NCBI GenBank assembly: GCA_964633995.1
Contig: CAZWKN010000003.1
Location: forward strand, 5,750-69,749
Source of the DNA: an uncultured Gammaproteobacteria bacterium
GTDB lineage: Bacteria; Patescibacteriota; Microgenomatia; CAZETR01; Amesbacteraceae
Direction of reading: 5' to 3'
DNA: 64,000 bases
Part shown: positions 1,785 to 64,000 of the stretch, piece after piece
Layout: the number at the start of each line of letters is the position of its first letter
Numbering within the stretch: position 1 is the first letter of the stretch
Translations under genes and position numbers: made by a program
Notes under the pieces: model-generated
The model's input: the letters and a program-made list of their open reading frames with translations, nothing else
Told to the model about the DNA's origin: nothing
Databases searched by the model: none

Positions 1785-2444
1785 ATGGGCCAAAAAGTAA
1801 ATCCATTAGCTTACAGATTGCCACTATCGCCGTCAGAGACGTGGTCTTCCCGATGGTTTACAACCAGTCATAAGAAATACATTAGTTACCTCGCCCAAGA
1901 TATTAAACTGAGAAAGGCCCTTATGGCTAAGTTGGCCGCGGCTTCGGTGACCAGGATCGAAATTGAAAGATCCTTGCGAAGCATGCGGGTAGTTATTTTT
2001 GTAACTAGACCCGGCGTGGTGATAGGAAGAGGTGGATCCGGACTTGAAGACATCAAGAAGTATATTTACTCGACGATGGGAATAAAGTCGGGAGCGAAAA
2101 ATACCCCAAGGATAGACTTGCAAGTTGAAGAGGTCAAGGAACCAGACCTAAATGCATATCTGGTGGCAACAAGAATATCCGAGCAATTGGCAAAGAGGAT
2201 GCCTGCTCGAAGAGTGGTTAACAAGGCTATGGAGAGAACGATGCAATCGCGGGCAGGTGGAATAAAGGTATTGCTGTCGGGAAGAATTGCCGGGGCCGAG
2301 ATTTCCAGAAGAGAAGCGTACAGAATGGGCTCTGTGCCACTCCAGACGCTCCGCGCAGACGTGGATTACGCCCAGGTGCCGTCTTTAACCAGATCGGGAT
2401 ATATTGGAGTTAAGGTATGGATTTGTAAGGGAGAAAAAAATTAG
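1785..2444 (+). CDS. rpsC: 30S ribosomal protein uS3
   Basis: 219 aa, [12 protein letters not shown]... S3 N-terminus, KH domain. Confidence 0.96.
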
Positions 2445-2445
2445 T

Positions 2446-2853
2446 ATGTTACAACCTAAAAGACAAAAACACAGAAAGCAATTTAGAGGTCAGATGCCCG
2501 GTATGTCTACGAGGGGGGCGAAGGTATCATTTGGAGAGTTTGGACTTAAGGCCATGGACAGAGGGTGGCTTTCTTCCCGGCAGATTGAAGCTGCCAGGAA
2601 GGCCATTTCTAGACATGCACAGAGAGGTGGCAAGGTCTGGATTCGCGTGTTTCCCGATAAGCCAATTACAAAGAAGGCATTGGGCACCCGCATGGGATCG
2701 GGCAAGGGAGACATTCATGAGTACGTAGCGGTTATTACCCCGGGGAGAATCTTGTTTGAGATTGCGGGAGTTACCGAAGAAGTTGCTAAATTGGCATTTG
2801 AAAGAGCTTCGGCAAAATTGCCTTTCGATGTTAAAACCGTATCTAAGATATAA
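2446..2853 (+). CDS. rplP: 50S ribosomal protein uL16
   Basis: Trimmed to ATG 2446 ([15 protein letters not shown]...), the canonical L16 N-terminus, right after rpsC stop TAG 2442-2444. Confidence 0.94.
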
Positions 2854-2855
2854 AT

Positions 2856-3059
2856 ATGGCAAAAACTAAAGTAAAAATTTCGCTCAAAGATATGACAGCT
2901 TCCGAGCTGATGGTCGAGGCAAAAAGGCTAAATCGTGAAGTAGCTAAATTGCGACTTGAGAAATCAGTGGGTAAGTTAAAAAATTTGAAATCGGTATTTT
3001 TTGCACGAAAAAATCTTGCTAAAACTCTTACTGTTTTAAAAACAAAATTAATCGTATAA
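2856..3059 (+). CDS. rpmC: 50S ribosomal protein uL29
   Basis: 67 aa, coiled-coil, conserved position between L16 and S17. Confidence 0.88.
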   Translation: MAKTKVKISLKDMTASELMVEAKRLNREVAKLRLEKSVGKLKNLKSVFFARKNLAKTLTVLKTKLIV

Positions 3060-10678: not shown

Positions 10679-11515
10679 ATGCTTACTCCACTTGGCTGGA
10701 GAGATTATGAGTTGATTGACACCGGGGATTACCAGAAGTTGGAAAGGTGGGGTCAATACGTTGCGTCCAGACCAGAACCTCGCGTTGTGTGGAAAAAAAA
10801 TAATCCTGATATCTGGAAATCGGCGGATGCAGTGTTTGAAAATGACCAATGGAATTTTAAAACTGAGCTACCCCAGTCGTGGGTTATTAATTACGGCCTG
10901 CTTAAATTTAAGCTTAAAGCAACAAGTTTTAAGCACACGGGGCTGTTTCCTGAACAGGCGGTAAATTGGGATTGGATTGCCGAAAAACTCAAAAACTCTA
11001 AAACTCAAAATATAAAGGTGTTGAATTTGTTTGCATATACAGGGGGGGCGACGCTGGCTGCTGCCGTAAAAGGAGCGCATGTCACCCACGTTGATTCATC
11101 GAAACCAGCCATGATGTGGGCATCGGAAAATGCCCAACTTTCCAACATTTCCAAAGACAAAATCAGATGGATTCAGGAGGACGCTGAAAAGTTTGTGCAA
11201 AGGGAGATCAGACGGGGGGCTAAATACGATGCGATCATTATGGATCCGCCCAGATTTGGGAGGGGACCCGGGGGCGAGGTGTGGAAACTTGAGGAAAATT
11301 TGCCGAGGTTTGTATGGGATTGTAAGCAAATACTATCTGAGGAACCAAAATTTTTCTTGATTAACGCTTACACGGCCGACCTATCTGCTGTAGCATTAAA
11401 AAACCTTCTCGAAGACGCATTAGAAAAAGAGGTCGAGAGTGGGGAAATAGGCCTCAAACAATCTTGTGGAACCAGGGAAATGCCGGCCGGAGTATTTGCC
11501 AGGTGGAATTGCTAG
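10679..11515 (+). CDS. Class I SAM-dependent rRNA methyltransferase, RlmI/YwbD-like (no PUA domain)
   Basis: Motifs LNLFAYTGG (SAM motif I), D-S-S, IMDPPRF (DPP motif IV); start ATG 10679 is 1 nt after rpsK stop TAA 10675-10677. Confidence 0.65.
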
Positions 11516-13386
11516 TTTACGACTTCGCCCTCTTCGGGTTTCTTATCATCGGTCTTTGGAGTTTCGGGAGCCTCTGCGGGTGTCTCTTCGGGCTTTTGAT
11601 ACATTGAGCTACCAATCTTTTGGATTGATTCCATGAGATCTTTGGACTTGGCCTCTAAATCCTCCTTGGTCCCGGTCTCTAAAATGTCCTTTAAGGCCTT
11701 AATTTTGGCCTCTACCTCTGTTTTTACATCGGCGGGGATCTTGTCCCCATTATCCTTAAGAGCTTTTTCAGCTGTAAAAATAAGCGAGTCCGCTTGGTTT
11801 CGACTTTCGATCTTGGCCCGTTTCTCTGCGTCTTCAGTAGCGTGTTTTTCGGCCTCTGCTCGCATTTTTTCAACCTCTTTTTCGTCAAGATTGGTCGAGT
11901 TGGTGATGGTGATATGCTGAACCTTATTGGTGGCCTTGTCCTTGGCGGATACTTTTAGAATGCCAGATGCATCAATATCAAAGGTGACTTCCACTTGAGG
12001 AACGCCCCTGGGTGCTGGAGGAATACCGTCTAGAATAAATCGGCCAAGTGTCTTATTGTCGGTAGCCATTGGCCGCTCTCCCTGAAGAACATGAATTTCC
12101 ACTGATGTTTGAGAGTCCGCAGCCGTTGAAAAGACCTGTGATTTAGACGTGGGAATAGTAGTGTTCCTATCGATTAGAGGAGTCATCACGCTTCCTAACG
12201 TCTCAAGTCCCAAAGTAAGCGGAGTTACATCTAGCAAGACAACATCCTTAACATCGCCAGTTAAGACACCCCCTTGAATTGCCGCCCCAACAGCAACTAC
12301 TTCATCAGGGTTGACACTACGATTGGGCTCTTTACCGAAAAATGTCTTTACGGTCTCAAAGACCTTGGGCATTCTGGTCATTCCTCCAACCAAAACAATC
12401 TCGTCTATTTTGGAAATGTCCATTTTTGCATCTTTTAGACAGGCCTTGACCGGAACAATGGTCTTTTGGATTAGATCGTCGACGATTGATTCGAGCTTTG
12501 CTCGGGAGAGTTTGAGATTTAGATGAAGAGGTTGGCCATCTTTCTGGGTAATATATGGTTGATTTATTTCCGCTTCCATGGCAGAACTTAACTCGATTTT
12601 GACCTTTTCGGCGGCGTCGCGGATGCGCTGAAGTGCCTGAGAATCCTTTTTTAGGTCGACACCGTTATCCTTTTTAAATTCATCCACAATCCAATCCATG
12701 ATCTGTTGATCAAAATCGTCCCCACCCAGGTGGGTATCACCATTAGTAGCCTTGACTTCAAAAACTCCATCTCCCAGCTCCAAAACCGACACATCAAACG
12801 TTCCACCACCCAGGTCGTAAACGACTACGGTATGGGCGTTTTTTTTGTCCAGTCCATAAGCCAAGGCGGCTGCGGTGGGCTCGTTGATAATTCTTTCCAC
12901 CTTAAGGCCGGCAATTTCCCCTGCTTGTTTTGTGGCTTGGCGCTGAGAATCATCGAAATATGCTGGAACCGTGATAACCGCTCGGTCAATAGTGGTTCCC
13001 AAATAGGCCTCAGCGTGTTTTTTCATAGTCTGAAGGGTAATAGCTGAAATTTCCTGAGGGGTATAAACTTTGCCGTCGATTTCGACGCACGCCATTTTGT
13101 CTTTTCCAGCAACTATTTTGTATGGAACCATATCCTGGGTTCGTTTGACTTCCGGGTCGGTCACTTTCCTACCCATAAGACGTTTGATACTATAAATGGT
13201 ATTTTTGGGATTAAGAATCATTTGCCGCTTGGCAACGTCTCCAACAAGATTTTTAAGCGGTTCAACAATAGAGGGAGTAACATTTCTACCAGTATCAGAG
13301 GCGTTAATTACTTTGGGTGCGCCGCCCTCCATAACTGCAACGCAACTATTGGTGGTTCCTAAATCAATTCCGATTATTTTGCTCAT
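11512..13386 (-). CDS. dnaK: Chaperone DnaK (Hsp70)
   Basis: 624 aa, [18 protein letters not shown], full Hsp70 architecture. Confidence 0.97.
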
Positions 13387-52364: not shown

Positions 52365-52437
52365 GATCCGGTGGTGAAGTAGCTAACACAGCGGTCTGCA
52401 AAACCGCCATTCATGGGTGCAAGTCCCATCCGGATCT
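52365..52437 (+). tRNA. tRNA-Cys (anticodon GCA)
   Basis: Manual fold: acceptor GATCCGG/CCGGATC (7 bp), U8, 3-bp D stem GTG/CAC, anticodon stem GCGGT/ACCGC with loop CTGCAAA, 5-bp T stem ATGGG/CCCAT with 7-nt loop, discriminator U73 (Cys identity element); CCA not encoded (followed by CA TTTTT). Confidence 0.65.
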
Positions 52438-52488
52438 CATTTTTACAGATTCGCATTTTCTTCGGTTTGAGTTGACTTTTGGGGATTT

Positions 52489-58421: not shown

Positions 58422-60173
58422 ATGAACAAAAGATTGTTGGGCTTTGTAGTTGTGGTTGTGGGAGGGCTTTTGGGCGGAGTAATGATAGTAAGTATCGTCC
58501 TGGAGGCCTGGTTATGGGGGAGGGTTTACCCTAATGTCGTTGTCTCCAACATTGACGTGGGGGGGCTGACTAAGGATGAAGCAGTAAAAAAAATTCAAAG
58601 TCAGAGCGAAACCCGAGGCAATTTTGTCATGAGTTGGGGAACCAGCCAGTGGCTGATTGACCCTAAAGCGATTGGGCTGGAGTATTACCCGGCATTGACC
58701 GCCGAAGAGGCGCTTCGCGTGGGCAGGAGCGGAAATGTTGGTGCTGATGTTAATGTAAAATTTCAACTTGCGCGTAAAAAAATTGTTGTCGATCCAGTAT
58801 TTTCGCTTGACGAAAACAAACTAAACGAAGAGTTGTTGGCTATAACGAGTCAAATAAATATTCCGGCAGCGGAGCCCGAAATTAAAATTGCTTCGGATGA
58901 AAGAATTGCGGTGTCTCCAGGTGAGAACGGTCAGGCTGTAGACGAAACACTGCTAAAGCAGCGTATCAGAAGTATGGCTAAAACATTTACTTTGAAAAAT
59001 ATTGAAGTGCCCGTTTTACAATTACGACCGAAGCTATCGGAGTTGCAAATTACCGACGCGAGAGGCAGGGCACAACGCTTGGTTGGTAAGAAACTTACCA
59101 TTACTGCACAAGCGGCTACAAAAGAGTGGGTTGTAACTCCTGATTTATTGGTGAGCTGGATTAATGCTCAAAATTTAGGCTGGAAAACTGAAGAAATTGA
59201 ATCATGGCTGGCTGGGCTTTCGGAAACAATCGACAAACCTGCTCAAAATGCAAGTTTTAGATTTGTCACATCAGGTAAGGTTGAGGAGTTTAAGCCGGCT
59301 AAAAACGGATTTAGGGTAATTCAAAACACCTCTTTGAACCATCTGGTGTCGGTATTAAATACAATGGTCGACAAATCTGGCTCTGAATTTACCATGGATT
59401 TGGACATCGACATACTTCAACCAAACATCCAAACCGGAGACGTGAACAATCTTGGCATAAAGGAACTGCTTGCCCGGGGAGAGTCTTGGTTTAGTGGATC
59501 GATAGACAATAGAATATTTAACATTAGATTGGCAGCTGGAAGGCTAAATGGTATTTTGGTACCTCCTGGAGAAACTTTTTCCTTTAACAAATATCTCGGT
59601 GAGGTAACTGCGGCAACTGGATTTAAACAAGCATATGTAATTGATAAAGGCAAAACCGTGCTTGGAGATGGTGGCGGGGTGTGTCAGGTATCAAGCACTC
59701 TGTTTAGGGCGGTGCTTCGAGCTGGGCTACCTGTTGATGAACGAATAGCCCATGCCTACAGGGTACATTATTATGAAGAAAAGAGCGAGCCGGGGTTTGA
59801 CGCTACTGTGTTCTCCCCTACCCCAGACTTTAAATTTACCAACGACACTCCTGCTTATATTTTGATCCAAACAGAATTTAATGAGAAGGAAAAATTTTTG
59901 GCATTTGATTTGTATGGAACCAGTGACGGCAGAAAAGCTGAGGTGTCTAAAGCAAGGGTATGGGATGTGGCAGCGCCACCACCTGATTTGTATCAGGACG
60001 ATCCAGCTTTACTTGTAGGAGTAGTCAAACAAACAGAACATGCTACGTGGGGGGCGAAAGTGGCGTTTGATTGGAAAGTAACTAGAAACGGAGAGGTTGT
60101 TCAAGAACGGACATTTTTTTCCAACTACAAACCCTGGCAAGCGGTGTATTTGAGAGGAACTAAAGTAAACTAG
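58422..60173 (+). CDS. VanW-family protein with N-terminal TM anchor
   Basis: C-terminal GGGVCQVSSTLFRAVLRAGLPVDERIAHAYRVHYY VanW domain. Confidence 0.85.
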   Translation: MNKRLLGFVVVVVGGLLGGVMIVSIVLEAWLWGRVYPNVVVSNIDVGGLTKDEAVKKIQSQSETRGNFVMSWGTSQWLIDPKAIGLEYYPALTAEEALRVGRSGNVGADVNVKFQLARKKIVVDPVFSLDENKLNEELLAITSQINIPAAEPEIKIASDERIAVSPGENGQAVDETLLKQRIRSMAKTFTLKNIEVPVLQLRPKLSELQITDARGRAQRLVGKKLTITAQAATKEWVVTPDLLVSWINAQNLGWKTEEIESWLAGLSETIDKPAQNASFRFVTSGKVEEFKPAKNGFRVIQNTSLNHLVSVLNTMVDKSGSEFTMDLDIDILQPNIQTGDVNNLGIKELLARGESWFSGSIDNRIFNIRLAAGRLNGILVPPGETFSFNKYLGEVTAATGFKQAYVIDKGKTVLGDGGGVCQVSSTLFRAVLRAGLPVDERIAHAYRVHYYEEKSEPGFDATVFSPTPDFKFTNDTPAYILIQTEFNEKEKFLAFDLYGTSDGRKAEVSKARVWDVAAPPPDLYQDDPALLVGVVKQTEHATWGAKVAFDWKVTRNGEVVQERTFFSNYKPWQAVYLRGTKVN

Positions 60174-60190: not shown

Positions 60191-60742
60191 TCACAGTTGC
60201 TCAGTTGTAAACTTGAAAGTGGAAAGAATCTTTTTTATTTCCAGCGTTAAACTGGTCACTTCGATTTTGTACTCCGAATCGTTTAAATAGCCTCGATAGA
60301 AATTTGGTTCAGTATTGGTTACAGATAGAGGGCCAAATTGTGTCATCGTTCCGTTGGGAAGTTCTTGTAATTGAGAGGGGGTGGAACATACAATAACAAT
60401 CGCTTGGCCAGAAACAACAGTGGAGGCTGGAATCATTAAATCACCTTGGAAATCAGGGCTTTTGATAAACGTGATGTTTCCAATATAAGGATCTGTGGAT
60501 TTTTCTTTTTTCCACCCTGAAGGAATTGATACATCAAAATTGCAATTTCTACTTGTAATCGGTGGACAGACTAAAATCGGATTACATGGGGCGCGGACAC
60601 ATTGGACCTGCTGGTAATAACAACCGGCTGTGGGGGTTGGAGAATATGGGTTGGGGGATGGAGGTCTGGAAAAAATAATTAAAAAGGTAGTTACAATAAT
60701 CAAAACTGAGGCAAGGAAAGAAACTGGGAGTGGTTTGGACAC
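60191..60742 (-). CDS. Hypothetical membrane-anchored Cys-rich secreted protein
   Basis: N-terminal TM, Pro-rich linker, 9 Cys in 60 aa (CYYQQVQCVRAPCNPILVCPP...). Confidence 0.35.
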   Translation of the reverse strand: MSKPLPVSFLASVLIIVTTFLIIFSRPPSPNPYSPTPTAGCYYQQVQCVRAPCNPILVCPPITSRNCNFDVSIPSGWKKEKSTDPYIGNITFIKSPDFQGDLMIPASTVVSGQAIVIVCSTPSQLQELPNGTMTQFGPLSVTNTEPNFYRGYLNDSEYKIEVTSLTLEIKKILSTFKFTTEQL

Positions 60743-60763
60743 TAGATTTAGTATAATTGGTTA

Positions 60764-61786
60764 ATGAAGATTGTCAAGGAAAAGGGCGCCAACATGGCAG
60801 AAATTATACAAACGCTTACCGACGGTGGCATCGTTGTGTTGCCAACTGAAACAGCTTACTTAACCGCCATTGACGCCACAAACCCCAAAGCAGTACAGAA
60901 ATTGTGTGAGTATAAAAAACGGCCTTTGGGTAAACCTTTTTCGGTTGCAGTCTCCGATATGGCCATGGCCGAAGAATATGTAGAGCTAAACAAACAAGCA
61001 ATAAAACTGTATAACACTTTTTTGCCTGGACCAGTAACTGTTGTGTCAAAAGGGAAACACAAGACGGCACCCGGGATAGAGTCGGAGCTAGGTACTTTGG
61101 GAATAAGAATCCCTGATTATCAATTGGTTATTGACGTTGTTAAACAATTCGGAAAACCTGTGACGGCAACATCGGCTAATAAGAGCTATGAAAAGCGACC
61201 TTATAAAATCGCCGATCTGGATATTGAAAAGTTTGATTTAATAATCGATGCCGGAGAGCTCCCGCACAACGAACCGTCCACGGTTATTGACACCACAATG
61301 GACGATTTGGTGGTGCTAAGACAGGGGGAAGTAGTTATCAGTAATCAGTTGTCAGTTGTCAGTTATAACGAAGAAATGACTAAAAATACTGGGAAGGAAC
61401 TGTGGCAGAAGTACGAGAAGTTTGCAGGACACAGGGCTATTGTATTTGCTTTGGAGGGCGAAATGGGAGCCGGAAAAACTGTTTTTACAAAAGGATTGGC
61501 AAGGGCTATGGGAATAGACGAAGTGATAACTTCGCCTACTTTTAATATTGAGCTTGTATACAAAAACTTACATCATATTGATGCGTGGAGAATGCAAAAC
61601 GGAGACGAGCTGGAACAATTGGGGCTGGCTGGAACAATACACGACAAATCAGTCCTGGTTATCGAATGGGCAGATAGGGTGGCGGATACGATAAGAAAAT
61701 ATAACGACGAAGCAGTAATTATTTGGGTAAAAATACTCTATGGAAAAGCTGATAACGAGAGGTTAATTAGCTGGGGAACATTGTAA
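60764..61786 (+). CDS. tsaC-tsaE: Fusion protein: L-threonylcarbamoyladenylate synthase TsaC (YrdC domain) + t6A ATPase TsaE (YjeE domain)
   Basis: N-terminal half: VLPTETAY...RPLGKPFSVAV...LPGPVTVV (YrdC/Sua5); C-terminal half: GEMGAGKTVFTKGLARAMG...ITSPTFNIE...HIDAWRM...VIEWADRV (TsaE signature). Confidence 0.8.
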   Translation: MKIVKEKGANMAEIIQTLTDGGIVVLPTETAYLTAIDATNPKAVQKLCEYKKRPLGKPFSVAVSDMAMAEEYVELNKQAIKLYNTFLPGPVTVVSKGKHKTAPGIESELGTLGIRIPDYQLVIDVVKQFGKPVTATSANKSYEKRPYKIADLDIEKFDLIIDAGELPHNEPSTVIDTTMDDLVVLRQGEVVISNQLSVVSYNEEMTKNTGKELWQKYEKFAGHRAIVFALEGEMGAGKTVFTKGLARAMGIDEVITSPTFNIELVYKNLHHIDAWRMQNGDELEQLGLAGTIHDKSVLVIEWADRVADTIRKYNDEAVIIWVKILYGKADNERLISWGTL

Positions 61787-61823
61787 ATTTCTAATTTCTA
61801 AACCCTAATTCCTAAACAATTAT

Positions 61824-62906
61824 ATGCAAAAAAATAGCAATCTTAAGATCTTGGCCATTGATACCTCGTGTGACGAGACGGCGGCGGCGGTAACCGAGGG
61901 TACAAAAATTTTGTCTAATGTAATTTGGTCACAGGCCAGTTTGCATGCCAAATATGGAGGCGTTCTCCCCTCTTTGGCTCAAAGAATGCACGAAGAAAGG
62001 ATTGATTGGGTTGTAAACAAAGCACTTCGACAAGCTCAGTGTAAACTAAACAAAATTGAATCAGTTGCGGTTACTTGTGGTCCGGGATTGGCGATTGCTT
62101 TGGGAGTAGGAATTAAAAAAGCAAAAGATGTGGCCCGAGAAATTGGTGTTCCAATCATTGGAGTGAATCATACAGAGGGGCACGTTTTATCGCCACTGGC
62201 GGAAGCAATAACCAAAAACCAAAATCCAAGAAACAAAATTTGTTTTCCGGCGTTGGGGTTGGTGGTAAGTGGGGCGAACACACAGCTAGTTCTAATTAGA
62301 AAAATCGGCGATTATCAGGTGTTGGCTGAGAAGGTAGACGATGCGCTGGGGGAGGCGTTGGACAAAGCAGCCCGCATGTTGGATCTTGGGTATCCGGGCG
62401 GAGCGGTATTGGAAAAATTGGCAAAATCTGGAAACCCAAAAGCTTATTCTCTACCATTGCCAATGGCAGGAAAGGAAGACAGAAATGAATTTAGTTATTC
62501 TGGCCTTAAGACTGCTTTTTGGAGACTAACTAATAACAAAACTTTTAGCAAGCAACAGATTTGCGATTTGGCGGCGAGTTTTCAAAACCGGGCGTTCGAA
62601 CACTTAACAAGAGTGTCGGAAAAGAGTATTAGAGCGGGAGAGTGTAAGAGTATAAGAACTTTGCTAGTTGGGGGTGGGGTGGGGGCAAATGTGGAATTGA
62701 GGAAGAGATTGAGAAAAGTGGCGAAGGATTTGGGCATGGAAACCAGATTCCCCTACTCTGCCAAGCTGTATGGAGACAATGCAGCCATGATTGGGGTCGT
62801 GGCGGGTTTTAAAGCAGCGAGAGGAGAGTTTTCAGATCCGGAAAAAATTGATAGGTTGCCAAGATGGAGTGTGGATGAAAAAATGGCACAAGAAGCTGTA
62901 AAATGA
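61824..62906 (+). CDS. tsaD: tRNA N6-adenosine threonylcarbamoyltransferase TsaD (Kae1/YgjD)
   Basis: ILAIDTSCDETAAAV...VNHTEGHVLSP metal-binding HxxH motif; 360 aa. Confidence 0.93.
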   Translation: MQKNSNLKILAIDTSCDETAAAVTEGTKILSNVIWSQASLHAKYGGVLPSLAQRMHEERIDWVVNKALRQAQCKLNKIESVAVTCGPGLAIALGVGIKKAKDVAREIGVPIIGVNHTEGHVLSPLAEAITKNQNPRNKICFPALGLVVSGANTQLVLIRKIGDYQVLAEKVDDALGEALDKAARMLDLGYPGGAVLEKLAKSGNPKAYSLPLPMAGKEDRNEFSYSGLKTAFWRLTNNKTFSKQQICDLAASFQNRAFEHLTRVSEKSIRAGECKSIRTLLVGGGVGANVELRKRLRKVAKDLGMETRFPYSAKLYGDNAAMIGVVAGFKAARGEFSDPEKIDRLPRWSVDEKMAQEAVK

Positions 62907-62909
62907 GGT

Positions 62910-64000
62910 ATGGATAAAGCGTTTGACCATAAAGTGTTTGAGTCTGAAATATATAAATCCTGGGAGGAGGGTGGGTATTTTAAAGCCAAAAAAACAGGTG
63001 TTCCTTATACAATATTAATGCCGCCGCCGAACGCGAACGCATCATTGCACGCTGGACACGCAATGTATTCTATTGACGATATAATGATCCGCTGGAAAAG
63101 AATGCAGGGTTTTTCCGCTGTGTGGATACCCGGGACCGACCATGCAGGATTTGAAACTCAGTTTGTCTATGAAAAACAGCTTGCCAAAGCTGGTAAGTCA
63201 AGAATGGACTTCGACAGACAAACGCTGTATGACAACGTGTATCAATTTGTAAAAGACAACTCAGGACTTATTAATAGTCAGTTTAGAAGGTTGGGTTTCT
63301 CTGCTGACTGGTCAAAATCGGTGTTTACGTTGGACCCCAACGTCATTGAACAGGTCGTAGCCACTTTTAAAAAAATGGAGACGGAAGGCAAGATTTATAG
63401 GGATGAATACATGGTTAATTATTGTACGCACTGCGGCACTTCATTGGCTGAACTGGAAGTTGACCACGAAGAGAGAGTTGATCCTTTGTATTACATGAAG
63501 TATGGCCCGTTTGTACTTGCGACTGTCAGACCGGAAACCAAGTTTGGAGACACTGCAGTCGCGGTACACCCCGACGACGAAAGGTATAAACATTGGATAG
63601 GCAAAGACATAGAAGTCGATGGTGTGATTGGCAAGTTTAAGGTGCGGGTGATTGCTGATGAGTTGGTCGACCCAAAGTTTGGCACCGGGGTGGTTAAGGT
63701 AACCCCCGCGCACGACCCCAACGATTTTGAGATGGGGAAGAGACATAATTTGGAAATTAAACAGGTTATTGGACTGGACGGAAGACTAAATGATAAGTGT
63801 GGAAAATATCGAGGTTTAAAAGTAAACGAGGCAAGGACCGCCGTGGTGGCAGATATGCAAGAGATGGGGCTTATCGACAGGATTGATGAACAATACATCC
63901 ATTCTGTAGGTGTTTGTTATAAATGCAAACGCGTGTTGGAACCAATGGTGATTTTGAATTGGTTCATTAAGGTCGCTGAATTGAAAAAACCTGTTATAGA
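62910..64000 (+). CDS. valS: Valyl-tRNA synthetase (5-prime partial, continues beyond window)
   Basis: ATG 62910 (MDKAFDHKVFE...), PPPNANASLHAGHA HIGH motif; no stop in window. Confidence 0.93.
   Translation, partial: MDKAFDHKVFESEIYKSWEEGGYFKAKKTGVPYTILMPPPNANASLHAGHAMYSIDDIMIRWKRMQGFSAVWIPGTDHAGFETQFVYEKQLAKAGKSRMDFDRQTLYDNVYQFVKDNSGLINSQFRRLGFSADWSKSVFTLDPNVIEQVVATFKKMETEGKIYRDEYMVNYCTHCGTSLAELEVDHEERVDPLYYMKYGPFVLATVRPETKFGDTAVAVHPDDERYKHWIGKDIEVDGVIGKFKVRVIADELVDPKFGTGVVKVTPAHDPNDFEMGKRHNLEIKQVIGLDGRLNDKCGKYRGLKVNEARTAVVADMQEMGLIDRIDEQYIHSVGVCYKCKRVLEPMVILNWFIKVAELKKPVI

Follow-up and report, generated by a model that had tools for sequence, protein, structure and literature searches.

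Can the enzyme that makes threonylcarbamoyl-AMP (TC-AMP), the labile intermediate in N6-threonylcarbamoyladenosine (t6A) modification of tRNA, and the ATPase that resets the t6A transferase be housed in one protein, and what would such a union change? This question is raised by a 340-aa open reading frame (ORF), here designated tsaCE, found upstream of tsaD near the end of a 64-kb stretch of contig CAZWKN010000003.1 (assembly GCA_964633995.1, GTDB lineage Patescibacteriota; Microgenomatia; Amesbacteraceae). This whole stretch is hereafter referred to as the window. In known systems, TsaD acts with TsaB to transfer the threonylcarbamoyl group to A37 of the tRNA, and hydrolysis of TsaE-bound ATP resets the complex after one turnover. 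In the canonical TsaBCDE machinery of Escherichia coli, Thermotoga maritima and Bacillus subtilis, TsaC and TsaE are separate proteins, whereas here a single chain holds both, linked by a short connector whose length is fixed, and TsaB is not seen nearby. The catalytic domains, their motifs and folds and the TsaD partner are the same in both, as presumably are the chemistry and the ATP-driven reset. On the sequence evidence, tsaCE is a clade-wide conserved variant of the bacterial t6A machinery, whose domain architecture is novel and assembled from known parts. The gene is organized as follows:

60764..61786, + strand: tsaCE, an ORF of 340 aa with an ATG start (coordinates include the stop codon), encoding a TsaC-TsaE fusion with Pfam and NCBIfam matches to both domains.
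60812..61327, + strand: TsaC (YrdC-type) TC-AMP synthase domain, aa 17-188, with the KRSN tetrad K51/R53/S137/N139 and a terminal LRQG (R186, G188).
61328..61360, + strand: inter-domain connector, aa 189-199 (EVVISNQLSVV), of variable sequence and fixed length.
61361..61783, + strand: TsaE (YjeE-type) P-loop ATPase domain, aa 200-340 (PF02367, TIGR00150).

Both halves of tsaCE were recognized by curated profiles. In Pfam, PF01300 (Sua5_yciO_yrdC) aligned with aa 17-188 over positions 2-178 of its 178 (E 5.4e-45, 153.5 bits against a cut-off of 25.1), and PF02367 (TsaE) with aa 202-312 (E 9.4e-28, 97.2 bits against a cut-off of 26.6). The NCBIfam equivalog models agreed, with 156.6 bits for the TC-AMP synthase model TIGR00057 (curated cut-off 123.2) and 85.4 bits for the TsaE model TIGR00150 (curated cut-off 60.1). 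Against NF007919 and NF007931, the equivalog models of the E. coli type, both domains scored far under the cut-offs, and they are therefore divergent versions belonging to the candidate phyla radiation (CPR). The original prediction of a single 340-aa ORF with complete TsaC and TsaE domains was borne out by these matches; alignment to PF01300 and PF02367 reproduced the domain boundaries that it gave, and the motifs that it listed were located at positions 235-239 (GAGKT), 257-260 (SPTF) and 300-305 (IEWADR). The start codon at 60764 is backed by homologues opening with MxIxK. A protein of 100% identity (P0001) was found in another assembly, where its gene call begins at M11 and yields 330 aa. 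The tsaCE product is confirmed as a genuine fusion that belongs, by the tests applied here, to both the TsaC and the TsaE families. In five homologues (P0028, P0289, P0302, P0321 and P0325), the precomputed annotations include an extra match to PF07693 (KAP-family P-loop) between the two domains, which is most likely a cross-match of the TsaE P-loop and not a third domain.

Apparent fusions can be created by a sequencing or assembly frameshift, or by a lost stop codon, merging adjacent tsaC and tsaE genes. Such an error could be suspected here because the sequence rests on the window assembly itself. However, the reading frame is unbroken across the junction (61328-61360), the junction aligns gap-free among homologues, and the same architecture recurs in independently assembled genomes from many samples. 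A scan of JGI metagenome contigs revealed at least 515 loci encoding a relative, 80 of which were kept; together with other fetched loci and the window, they formed a set of 90 sequences (ca. 1.0 Mb). In this set, all 86 ORFs matched by both domain queries keep the two domains in one frame. Apart from L002, a copy truncated by its contig, and L005, an unrelated multidomain protein, single-domain ORFs were limited to L003 and L004, in which more distant Patescibacteria carry TsaC as a gene of its own. With these 86 intact ORFs, thousands of database proteins and the identical P0001, a merging of two genes by error, which the original prediction had named as the alternative at this junction, is excluded for practical purposes. 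Such a comparison across relatives carries more weight than mapped reads would.

The search of ca. 5.8 billion proteins returned 2890 matches at E≤1e-5, and the best 120, which were examined, all combined PF01300 with PF02367 (58-68% identity; NCBI, JGI, ENA and Logan assemblies). The same combination was found in all of the best 120 of 2359 matches at E≤1e-10 in a profile search. An exhaustive HMMER search with the TsaE domain only detected 18,216 relatives at E≤1e-3; among the best 150 representatives of 50%-identity clusters were 24 full-length fusions, with 34-46% identity to the window protein over their whole length, as well as four N-terminally truncated fragments still carrying the end of the TsaC domain. 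This recurrence indicates that the fusion is maintained by selection. Named carriers of the fusion included Candidatus Woesebacteria, Candidatus Collierbacteria, "Candidatus Microgenomates bacterium" and unclassified Patescibacteria. Several of the genes lie on contigs measuring 0.67-0.84 Mb, probably genomes that are nearly complete, and the contig names point mostly to groundwater, aquifer, sediment and peat metagenomes. The survey of relatives that had been suggested along with the original prediction thus found the same fusion in hundreds of relatives. The architecture is unusual, as had been claimed, only with regard to characterised bacteria; in Microgenomates-type CPR bacteria it is common.

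The conservation of catalytic motifs was scored in an alignment of 309 distinct fusion sequences (286 close and 23 distant). The KRSN tetrad (K-x-R ... S-x-N), which distinguishes TsaC and Sua5 from their paralogue YciO (PMC4615747), is represented in tsaCE by K51, R53, S137 and N139, residues kept in 284-286 of the 286 close and 12-23 of the 23 distant sequences. A YciO-type paralogue is ruled out by this tetrad together with the TIGR00057 score, and the TsaC domain is predicted to synthesize TC-AMP from threonine, bicarbonate and ATP. The TsaE domain displays S-x-x-E-E-x-T (T206), a Walker A motif (G232-T239), switch I (SPTF, 257-260), switch II (H271-x-D273-x-W275-R276), E301-W302 and R333. 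Across the 309 sequences, Walker A, switch I (SPT[FY]), switch II (H-x-D-x-[WY]-R) and the EW pair are invariant or nearly so, with conservative exchanges of Phe and Tyr in switch I and of Trp and Tyr in switch II; the switch II aromatic residue is Trp in 285 of the 286 close members and Tyr in five of the 23 distant ones. The switch residues match Thr63/Phe64 and Tyr82/Arg83 of T. maritima TsaE, the mutation of which leaves ATP hydrolysis uncoupled from the resetting of the transfer complex (PMC6614819). From the adjacency of tsaD, the TsaE domain may be expected to dock in an ATP-dependent manner on TsaB-TsaD and to act as an ATPase needed for multiple turnovers.

Structural comparisons gave a similar picture. 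In Foldseek searches, the AlphaFold2 (AF2) model of tsaCE matched E. coli YrdC (1hru) with a target TM-score (TMt) of 0.79 and a root-mean-square deviation (rmsd) of 2.5-3.0 Å. It also matched the TsaE structures of B. subtilis YdiB (5np9, TMt 0.72-0.73) and HI0065 (1htw, 0.77), as well as T. maritima TsaE (6n9a_E, 0.70), a chain of the TsaB2D2E2 complex. These structure searches found no PDB chain carrying both a TsaC and a TsaE domain.

The way in which the two domains are joined is itself conserved. The TsaC domain closes at an invariant L-R186-x-G188, and the TsaE fold opens with a strand and a helix bearing S-x-S-E-E-x-T206. Since the latter motif is N-terminal in the stand-alone TsaE protein P0124, the true connector is left with only some 10 residues (189-199). 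Averaged over its columns, conservation is 0.61, compared with 0.71-0.78 for the domains. R186 and the Walker A residue G232 are 46 residues apart in 120 of 120 database homologues and in 84 of 85 locus ORFs; in representatives below 50% identity, this distance ranges from 42 to 54 residues and is again 46 in 12 of 21. Elsewhere in the fusion proteins, indels were seen: the TsaC domain has one of 7 residues, and inserts that vary lie between the switches of TsaE. The 7-residue stretch (consensus ILxNISxKQK; aa ca. 152-158, nt ca. 61217-61237) is missing from the window protein and a minority of homologues (e.g., P0024, P0041 and P0081), a small polymorphism in a domain that is conserved in other respects. 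Three distant fusions of 409-436 aa (P0171, P0192 and P0209) have low-complexity inserts of ca. 40-60 aa between switch I and switch II, and despite these their inter-domain connector is close to the usual length. When computed with 121 more diverse sequences, the AF2 model reached a mean predicted local distance difference test (pLDDT) score of 92 and a predicted TM-score (pTM) of 0.78, with no segment below a pLDDT of 50. The fixed connector length and this predicted model argue for a compact, defined two-domain body rather than beads on a floppy linker.

The genes surrounding tsaCE are the following:

58422..60173, + strand: VanW / PG_binding_4 gene (Pfam), upstream of the t6A genes.
60191..60742, - strand: hypothetical ORF of 183 aa between vanW and tsaCE, with a hydrophobic N-terminus and many cysteines.
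61787..61823, + strand: spacer of 37 nt between tsaCE and tsaD, with no terminator-like site in a terminator scan.
61824..62906, + strand: tsaD, 360 aa, ATG start (PF00814, E 1e-75; TIGR03723, 337.2 bits against a cut-off of 296.1).
62910..64000, running past the end of the window, + strand: class I aminoacyl-tRNA synthetase of the Val/Leu/Ile type (PF00133, E 1.3e-51).

The assignment of the next gene to TsaD, made in the original prediction, agrees with these profile scores, and the translation displays HxxxH (H116/H120), GGGVGAN and DNAAMI, the first and last being metal-site motifs. Of 80 informative related loci, 79 have tsaD downstream of the fusion and in the same orientation, the TsaD core starting within 100 nt of the fusion stop codon in 70 of these 79. 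A VanW homologue with the orientation of the fusion precedes it in 62 related loci, and a homologue of the class I synthetase follows in 50. The block VanW - tsaCE - tsaD - class I aminoacyl-tRNA synthetase is conserved. In the window, the synthetase frame opens 3 nt after the tsaD stop codon, and tsaCE is probably co-transcribed with tsaD and the synthetase gene. No Pfam family matched the 183-aa ORF, and none of the related loci showed a homologue of it close to the fusion; it represents an insertion specific to this lineage and lies outside the conserved module.

Several other features were recorded at or around the locus. A strong minus-strand match to a sigma-70-like promoter (TTGACA-16-TATACT, 11/12) overlaps the first tsaCE codons (60750-60777). 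On the plus strand, a TATAAT at 60752-60757 ends 6 nt before the tsaCE ATG, a placement that could give a leaderless tsaCE mRNA. In one related locus (L006), a gene of the dihydrodipicolinate synthase (DHDPS) family separates tsaCE from tsaD (11194-12096), and a LAGLIDADG-like ORF sits beside groEL (2004-3032). The GC skew of the window is positive in almost all 2-kb bins, and the cumulative skew climbs steadily. A single tRNA gene (tRNA-Cys, 52365-52438) and no other Rfam family were detected in the 64 kb, the Rfam and tRNA scans revealing nothing relevant close to the tsaCE locus.

What, then, might be the function of such a protein? TC-AMP is unstable (PMC7913687), and a position of TsaC near TsaD has been proposed, by which diffusion-limited delivery of TC-AMP would be overcome (PMC10484737). 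In known systems, the cavity formed where TsaB meets TsaD, at the mouth of the transfer site, serves as the binding place for TsaE as well as for tRNA (PMC6614819; PMC10484737). We consider that tsaCE probably encodes a bifunctional t6A protein that brings TC-AMP synthesis to TsaD whenever TsaE docks. The TsaC domain would produce TC-AMP, while the TsaE domain would dock on the TsaD-containing complex and reset it after each turnover; with a short fixed connector and compact packing, each docking event would bring TsaC to the mouth of the active site of TsaD. If TsaC and TsaE form a rigid body, TC-AMP would be made and loaded during the TsaE-bound (reset) state, and tRNA binding would come later. 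The cycle might run in three steps: ATP-bound TsaE would dock and the tethered TsaC would load labile TC-AMP into TsaD while tRNA is absent; ATP would then be hydrolysed and TsaCE would depart; finally, tRNA would bind and the threonylcarbamoyl group would be moved to A37. The identities of the domains, their intact motifs, the conserved fusion, the operon and the connector length are observed in the sequences; the activities, the docking geometry, the loading order, the TC-AMP hand-off and any kinetic benefit are what we infer. That the fusion physically couples the two halves of the pathway, as the original prediction suggested, is reasonable to suppose, and the fixed connector and the compact AF2 model lend this indirect support.

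Several observations weigh against this proposal. Complete stand-alone TsaE proteins of 144-149 aa are encoded directly upstream of tsaD in two close relatives (P0124 and P0128). Another locus (L090, positions 1-1171; JGI Ga0063356_101044518) has a 149-aa TsaE between a VanW gene and tsaD, a synteny identical to that of the window minus the TsaC domain. Stand-alone TsaC proteins also exist in other, more distant Patescibacteria. The fusion is therefore not universal in the clade, and the pathway does not require it. In known systems, one half of the TsaE docking site is provided by TsaB, yet searches of the window and of up to 10 kb around each fusion locus revealed no TsaB. When AF2 was run with 57 sequences, the pTM was 0.54 and residues 180-194 formed a low-confidence stretch. 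Moreover, it is not evident that a tethered TsaC could deliver its product while TsaE is bound.

The main rival to the coupling of the two activities is a fusion of convenience, which in a reduced genome would secure co-expression and stoichiometry while the two domains act as separate proteins, TC-AMP diffuses and kinetics are unaffected. Fusions of pathway partners are frequent, including among t6A genes (YeaZ-RimI, YjeE-Alr, Kae1-Bud32 and TsaC-HemK), and TsaE is unfused in close relatives that share the synteny. In addition, a neighbour-joining tree of the TsaE domains of 111 representatives, some of them contig-truncated fragments, was star-like and mixed fused with unfused members without resolving them. 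Yet the length of a passive tether should drift over time, whereas this connector is constant in 204 of 205 close members and shifts by only a few residues below 50% identity; its constancy suggests a constrained geometry, as does the compact AF2 model (pTM 0.78). A fusion of convenience is, on balance, rather unlikely, and delivery of TC-AMP synthesis to TsaD by the docking TsaE domain remains the reading that we prefer.

The same relatives bear on the origin of the gene. In the simplest reading, the tsaE-tsaD pair is the older arrangement in this clade, and tsaC was later joined to the 5' end of tsaE; alternatively, the unfused TsaE may have arisen by clean loss of the TsaC part from a fusion. 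A different joining was seen in P0195 (233 aa, a representative of a 50%-identity cluster), in which ca. 70 N-terminal TsaD residues (ILAIDTSCDET...GGVVPHLAKRAH) run straight into a TsaE domain. P0195 may represent a real but truncated fusion, a chimera formed by deletion or an artefact of assembly.

The proposed docking also raises the question of where TsaB is encoded. Searches were carried out with phmmer, using the TsaD of the window and E. coli YeaZ (100% identical to PDB 4wq4_C) as queries, and with a GPGSFTG-type motif. They detected no TsaB-like ORF in the 64-kb window nor within 10 kb of any of the 90 fusion loci (ca. 1 Mb); all 60 matches obtained with E. coli YeaZ in the window and the 90 loci were TsaD proteins. 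Nor was tsaB found in the contexts of the stand-alone TsaE relatives P0124, P0128 and P0137. The lack of TsaB in the window, which had been noted in the original prediction, was therefore real, yet uninformative alone, as tsaB is often unlinked and the window covers 64 kb of a genome of ca. 0.7-0.85 Mb. The gene lies outside the module, a conclusion that covers local searches only and does not imply absence from the whole genome.

A system truly devoid of TsaB can be envisaged, in which TsaD would form a homodimer like mitochondrial Qri7, TsaC-TsaE would dock on it, and two genes would suffice for t6A. The searches described above are compatible with this idea. In Gram-positive-type operons, the tsaB-rimI pair sits between tsaE and tsaD; here, tsaE directly adjoins tsaD with no such pair in between. 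CPR genomes are, in addition, strongly reduced. However, tsaB is dispersed and unlinked to tsaD in most bacterial phyla (PMC3571937, which also describes the diversity of t6A operons), so that neighbourhoods of 20 kb say little. Known structures show TsaE in contact with TsaB as well as with TsaD. Absence of TsaB has been reported only for Mycoplasma haemofelis and M. suis, which are without TsaE too (PMC4615747), whereas the fusion keeps TsaE with every ATPase and switch motif intact. For this last reason, a tsaB gene located elsewhere in the genome is much more likely than a TsaB-less system, which we regard as improbable. Equally doubtful is the further step of assuming, for Microgenomates-type CPR bacteria, a two-gene t6A pathway in which the TsaE reset step is simultaneously the loading of TC-AMP by the tethered TsaC. 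If true, this would be the first bacterial lineage to keep TsaE without TsaB, and a minimal natural system fixing the order of the cycle.

Comparison with other multidomain proteins places tsaCE apart from each of them. With Sua5/TsaC2, it shares an N-terminal YrdC-type domain, a length of ca. 340 aa, a two-domain layout and a database name; the C-terminal domain of Sua5/TsaC2 is SUA5 (PF03481), and tsaCE has TsaE instead. Membership of the Sua5/TsaC2 group was rejected, as a Pfam scan at E≤0.01 found PF01300 and PF02367 only, with no PF03481, and superposition gave an rmsd of 10-15 Å. This likeness leaves room for the idea that the TsaE domain, lying where the SUA5 domain would sit, acts in cis on TsaC and gates TC-AMP synthesis or release. 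Sua5 structures were indeed the top whole-chain Foldseek matches. Nevertheless, the superposition over the whole chain is poor (query TM-score, TMq, ca. 0.53), the second domain differs in fold and place, the TsaE switch residues that address TsaD are conserved, and tsaD is the invariant neighbour. Such an action in cis is very improbable, and docking of the TsaE domain on the TsaD complex is retained as the preferred function.

TobZ, HypF and Pandoravirus TsaN likewise tie an adenylate-forming YrdC-like domain to adenylate-consuming machinery, and in TobZ and HypF the fusion forms a channel for the intermediate (PMC10484737). In these proteins, the producer is fused to a Kae1/TsaD-like transferase, whereas in tsaCE it is fused to the ATPase regulator of the transferase and TsaD remains separate. 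A YrdC-Kae1 fusion of this type was rejected for tsaCE, which contains no PF00814, TsaD having its own ORF 37 nt downstream. The archaeal Kae1-Bud32 proteins (e.g., MJ1130 and HVO_1895) are also t6A fusions involving an accessory ATPase/kinase and provide a comparable "Rosetta stone"; of 53 archaea, 25 have Kae1 and Bud32 in one protein and 13 have the two genes side by side (PMC4615747). Kae1-Bud32 joins transferase and regulator, while tsaCE joins TC-AMP synthase and regulator, Bud32 and TsaE having unrelated folds. Other bacterial fusions include YeaZ-YgjD-RimI, YjeE-Alr and hydrolase-YeaZ (PMC3571937), as well as TsaC-HemK in M. genitalium (PMC4615747). They illustrate how readily t6A genes fuse, and none of them combines TsaC with TsaE. 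In the same synteny survey, no interaction at the protein level of RimN (TsaC) with the YgjD complex was reported, and full four-gene clusters occurred in two organisms only (PMC3571937).

The TsaC-TsaE fusion was found nowhere described in the searchable literature, outside which most subscription-journal papers fall. It is not mentioned in the t6A reviews of 2015 and 2022, in the 2023 TsaN paper, which had specifically sought TsaC-TsaD fusions, in the 2013 synteny survey or in the 2009 YrdC paper, and the term "TsaE" is absent from a sequence-similarity-network study published in 2025, which covered 54,820 PF01300 proteins with lengths of 150-350 aa. The combination of PF01300 and PF02367 is already on record among the precomputed Pfam annotations of the protein database. 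The fusion is thus undescribed in the searchable literature, yet known to databases. The database names of these proteins are only "L-threonylcarbamoyladenylate synthase" or "hypothetical protein", and tsaE would therefore be counted as absent when the metabolism of these CPR genomes is reconstructed; recognizing tsaCE corrects an annotation that hides tsaE.

The tsaCE gene does not define a new kind of system, as both domains, the pathway and the fusing habit of t6A genes were already known, and its significance would rise substantially if complete genomes prove to be without tsaB. It bears on two open questions of t6A biosynthesis. One is the transit of labile TC-AMP from TsaC to TsaD, for which proximity through transient interactions has been proposed (PMC10484737); the other is the role of TsaC in the TsaE-driven reset, including whether binding takes place before or after tRNA (PMC6614819). 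With 340 aa and a predicted compact shape, tsaCE offers a ready construct for structural and kinetic tests of channelling. A covalent link between TsaC and TsaE that is both widespread and conserved provides "Rosetta stone" evidence for TsaC working at the TsaE docking site.

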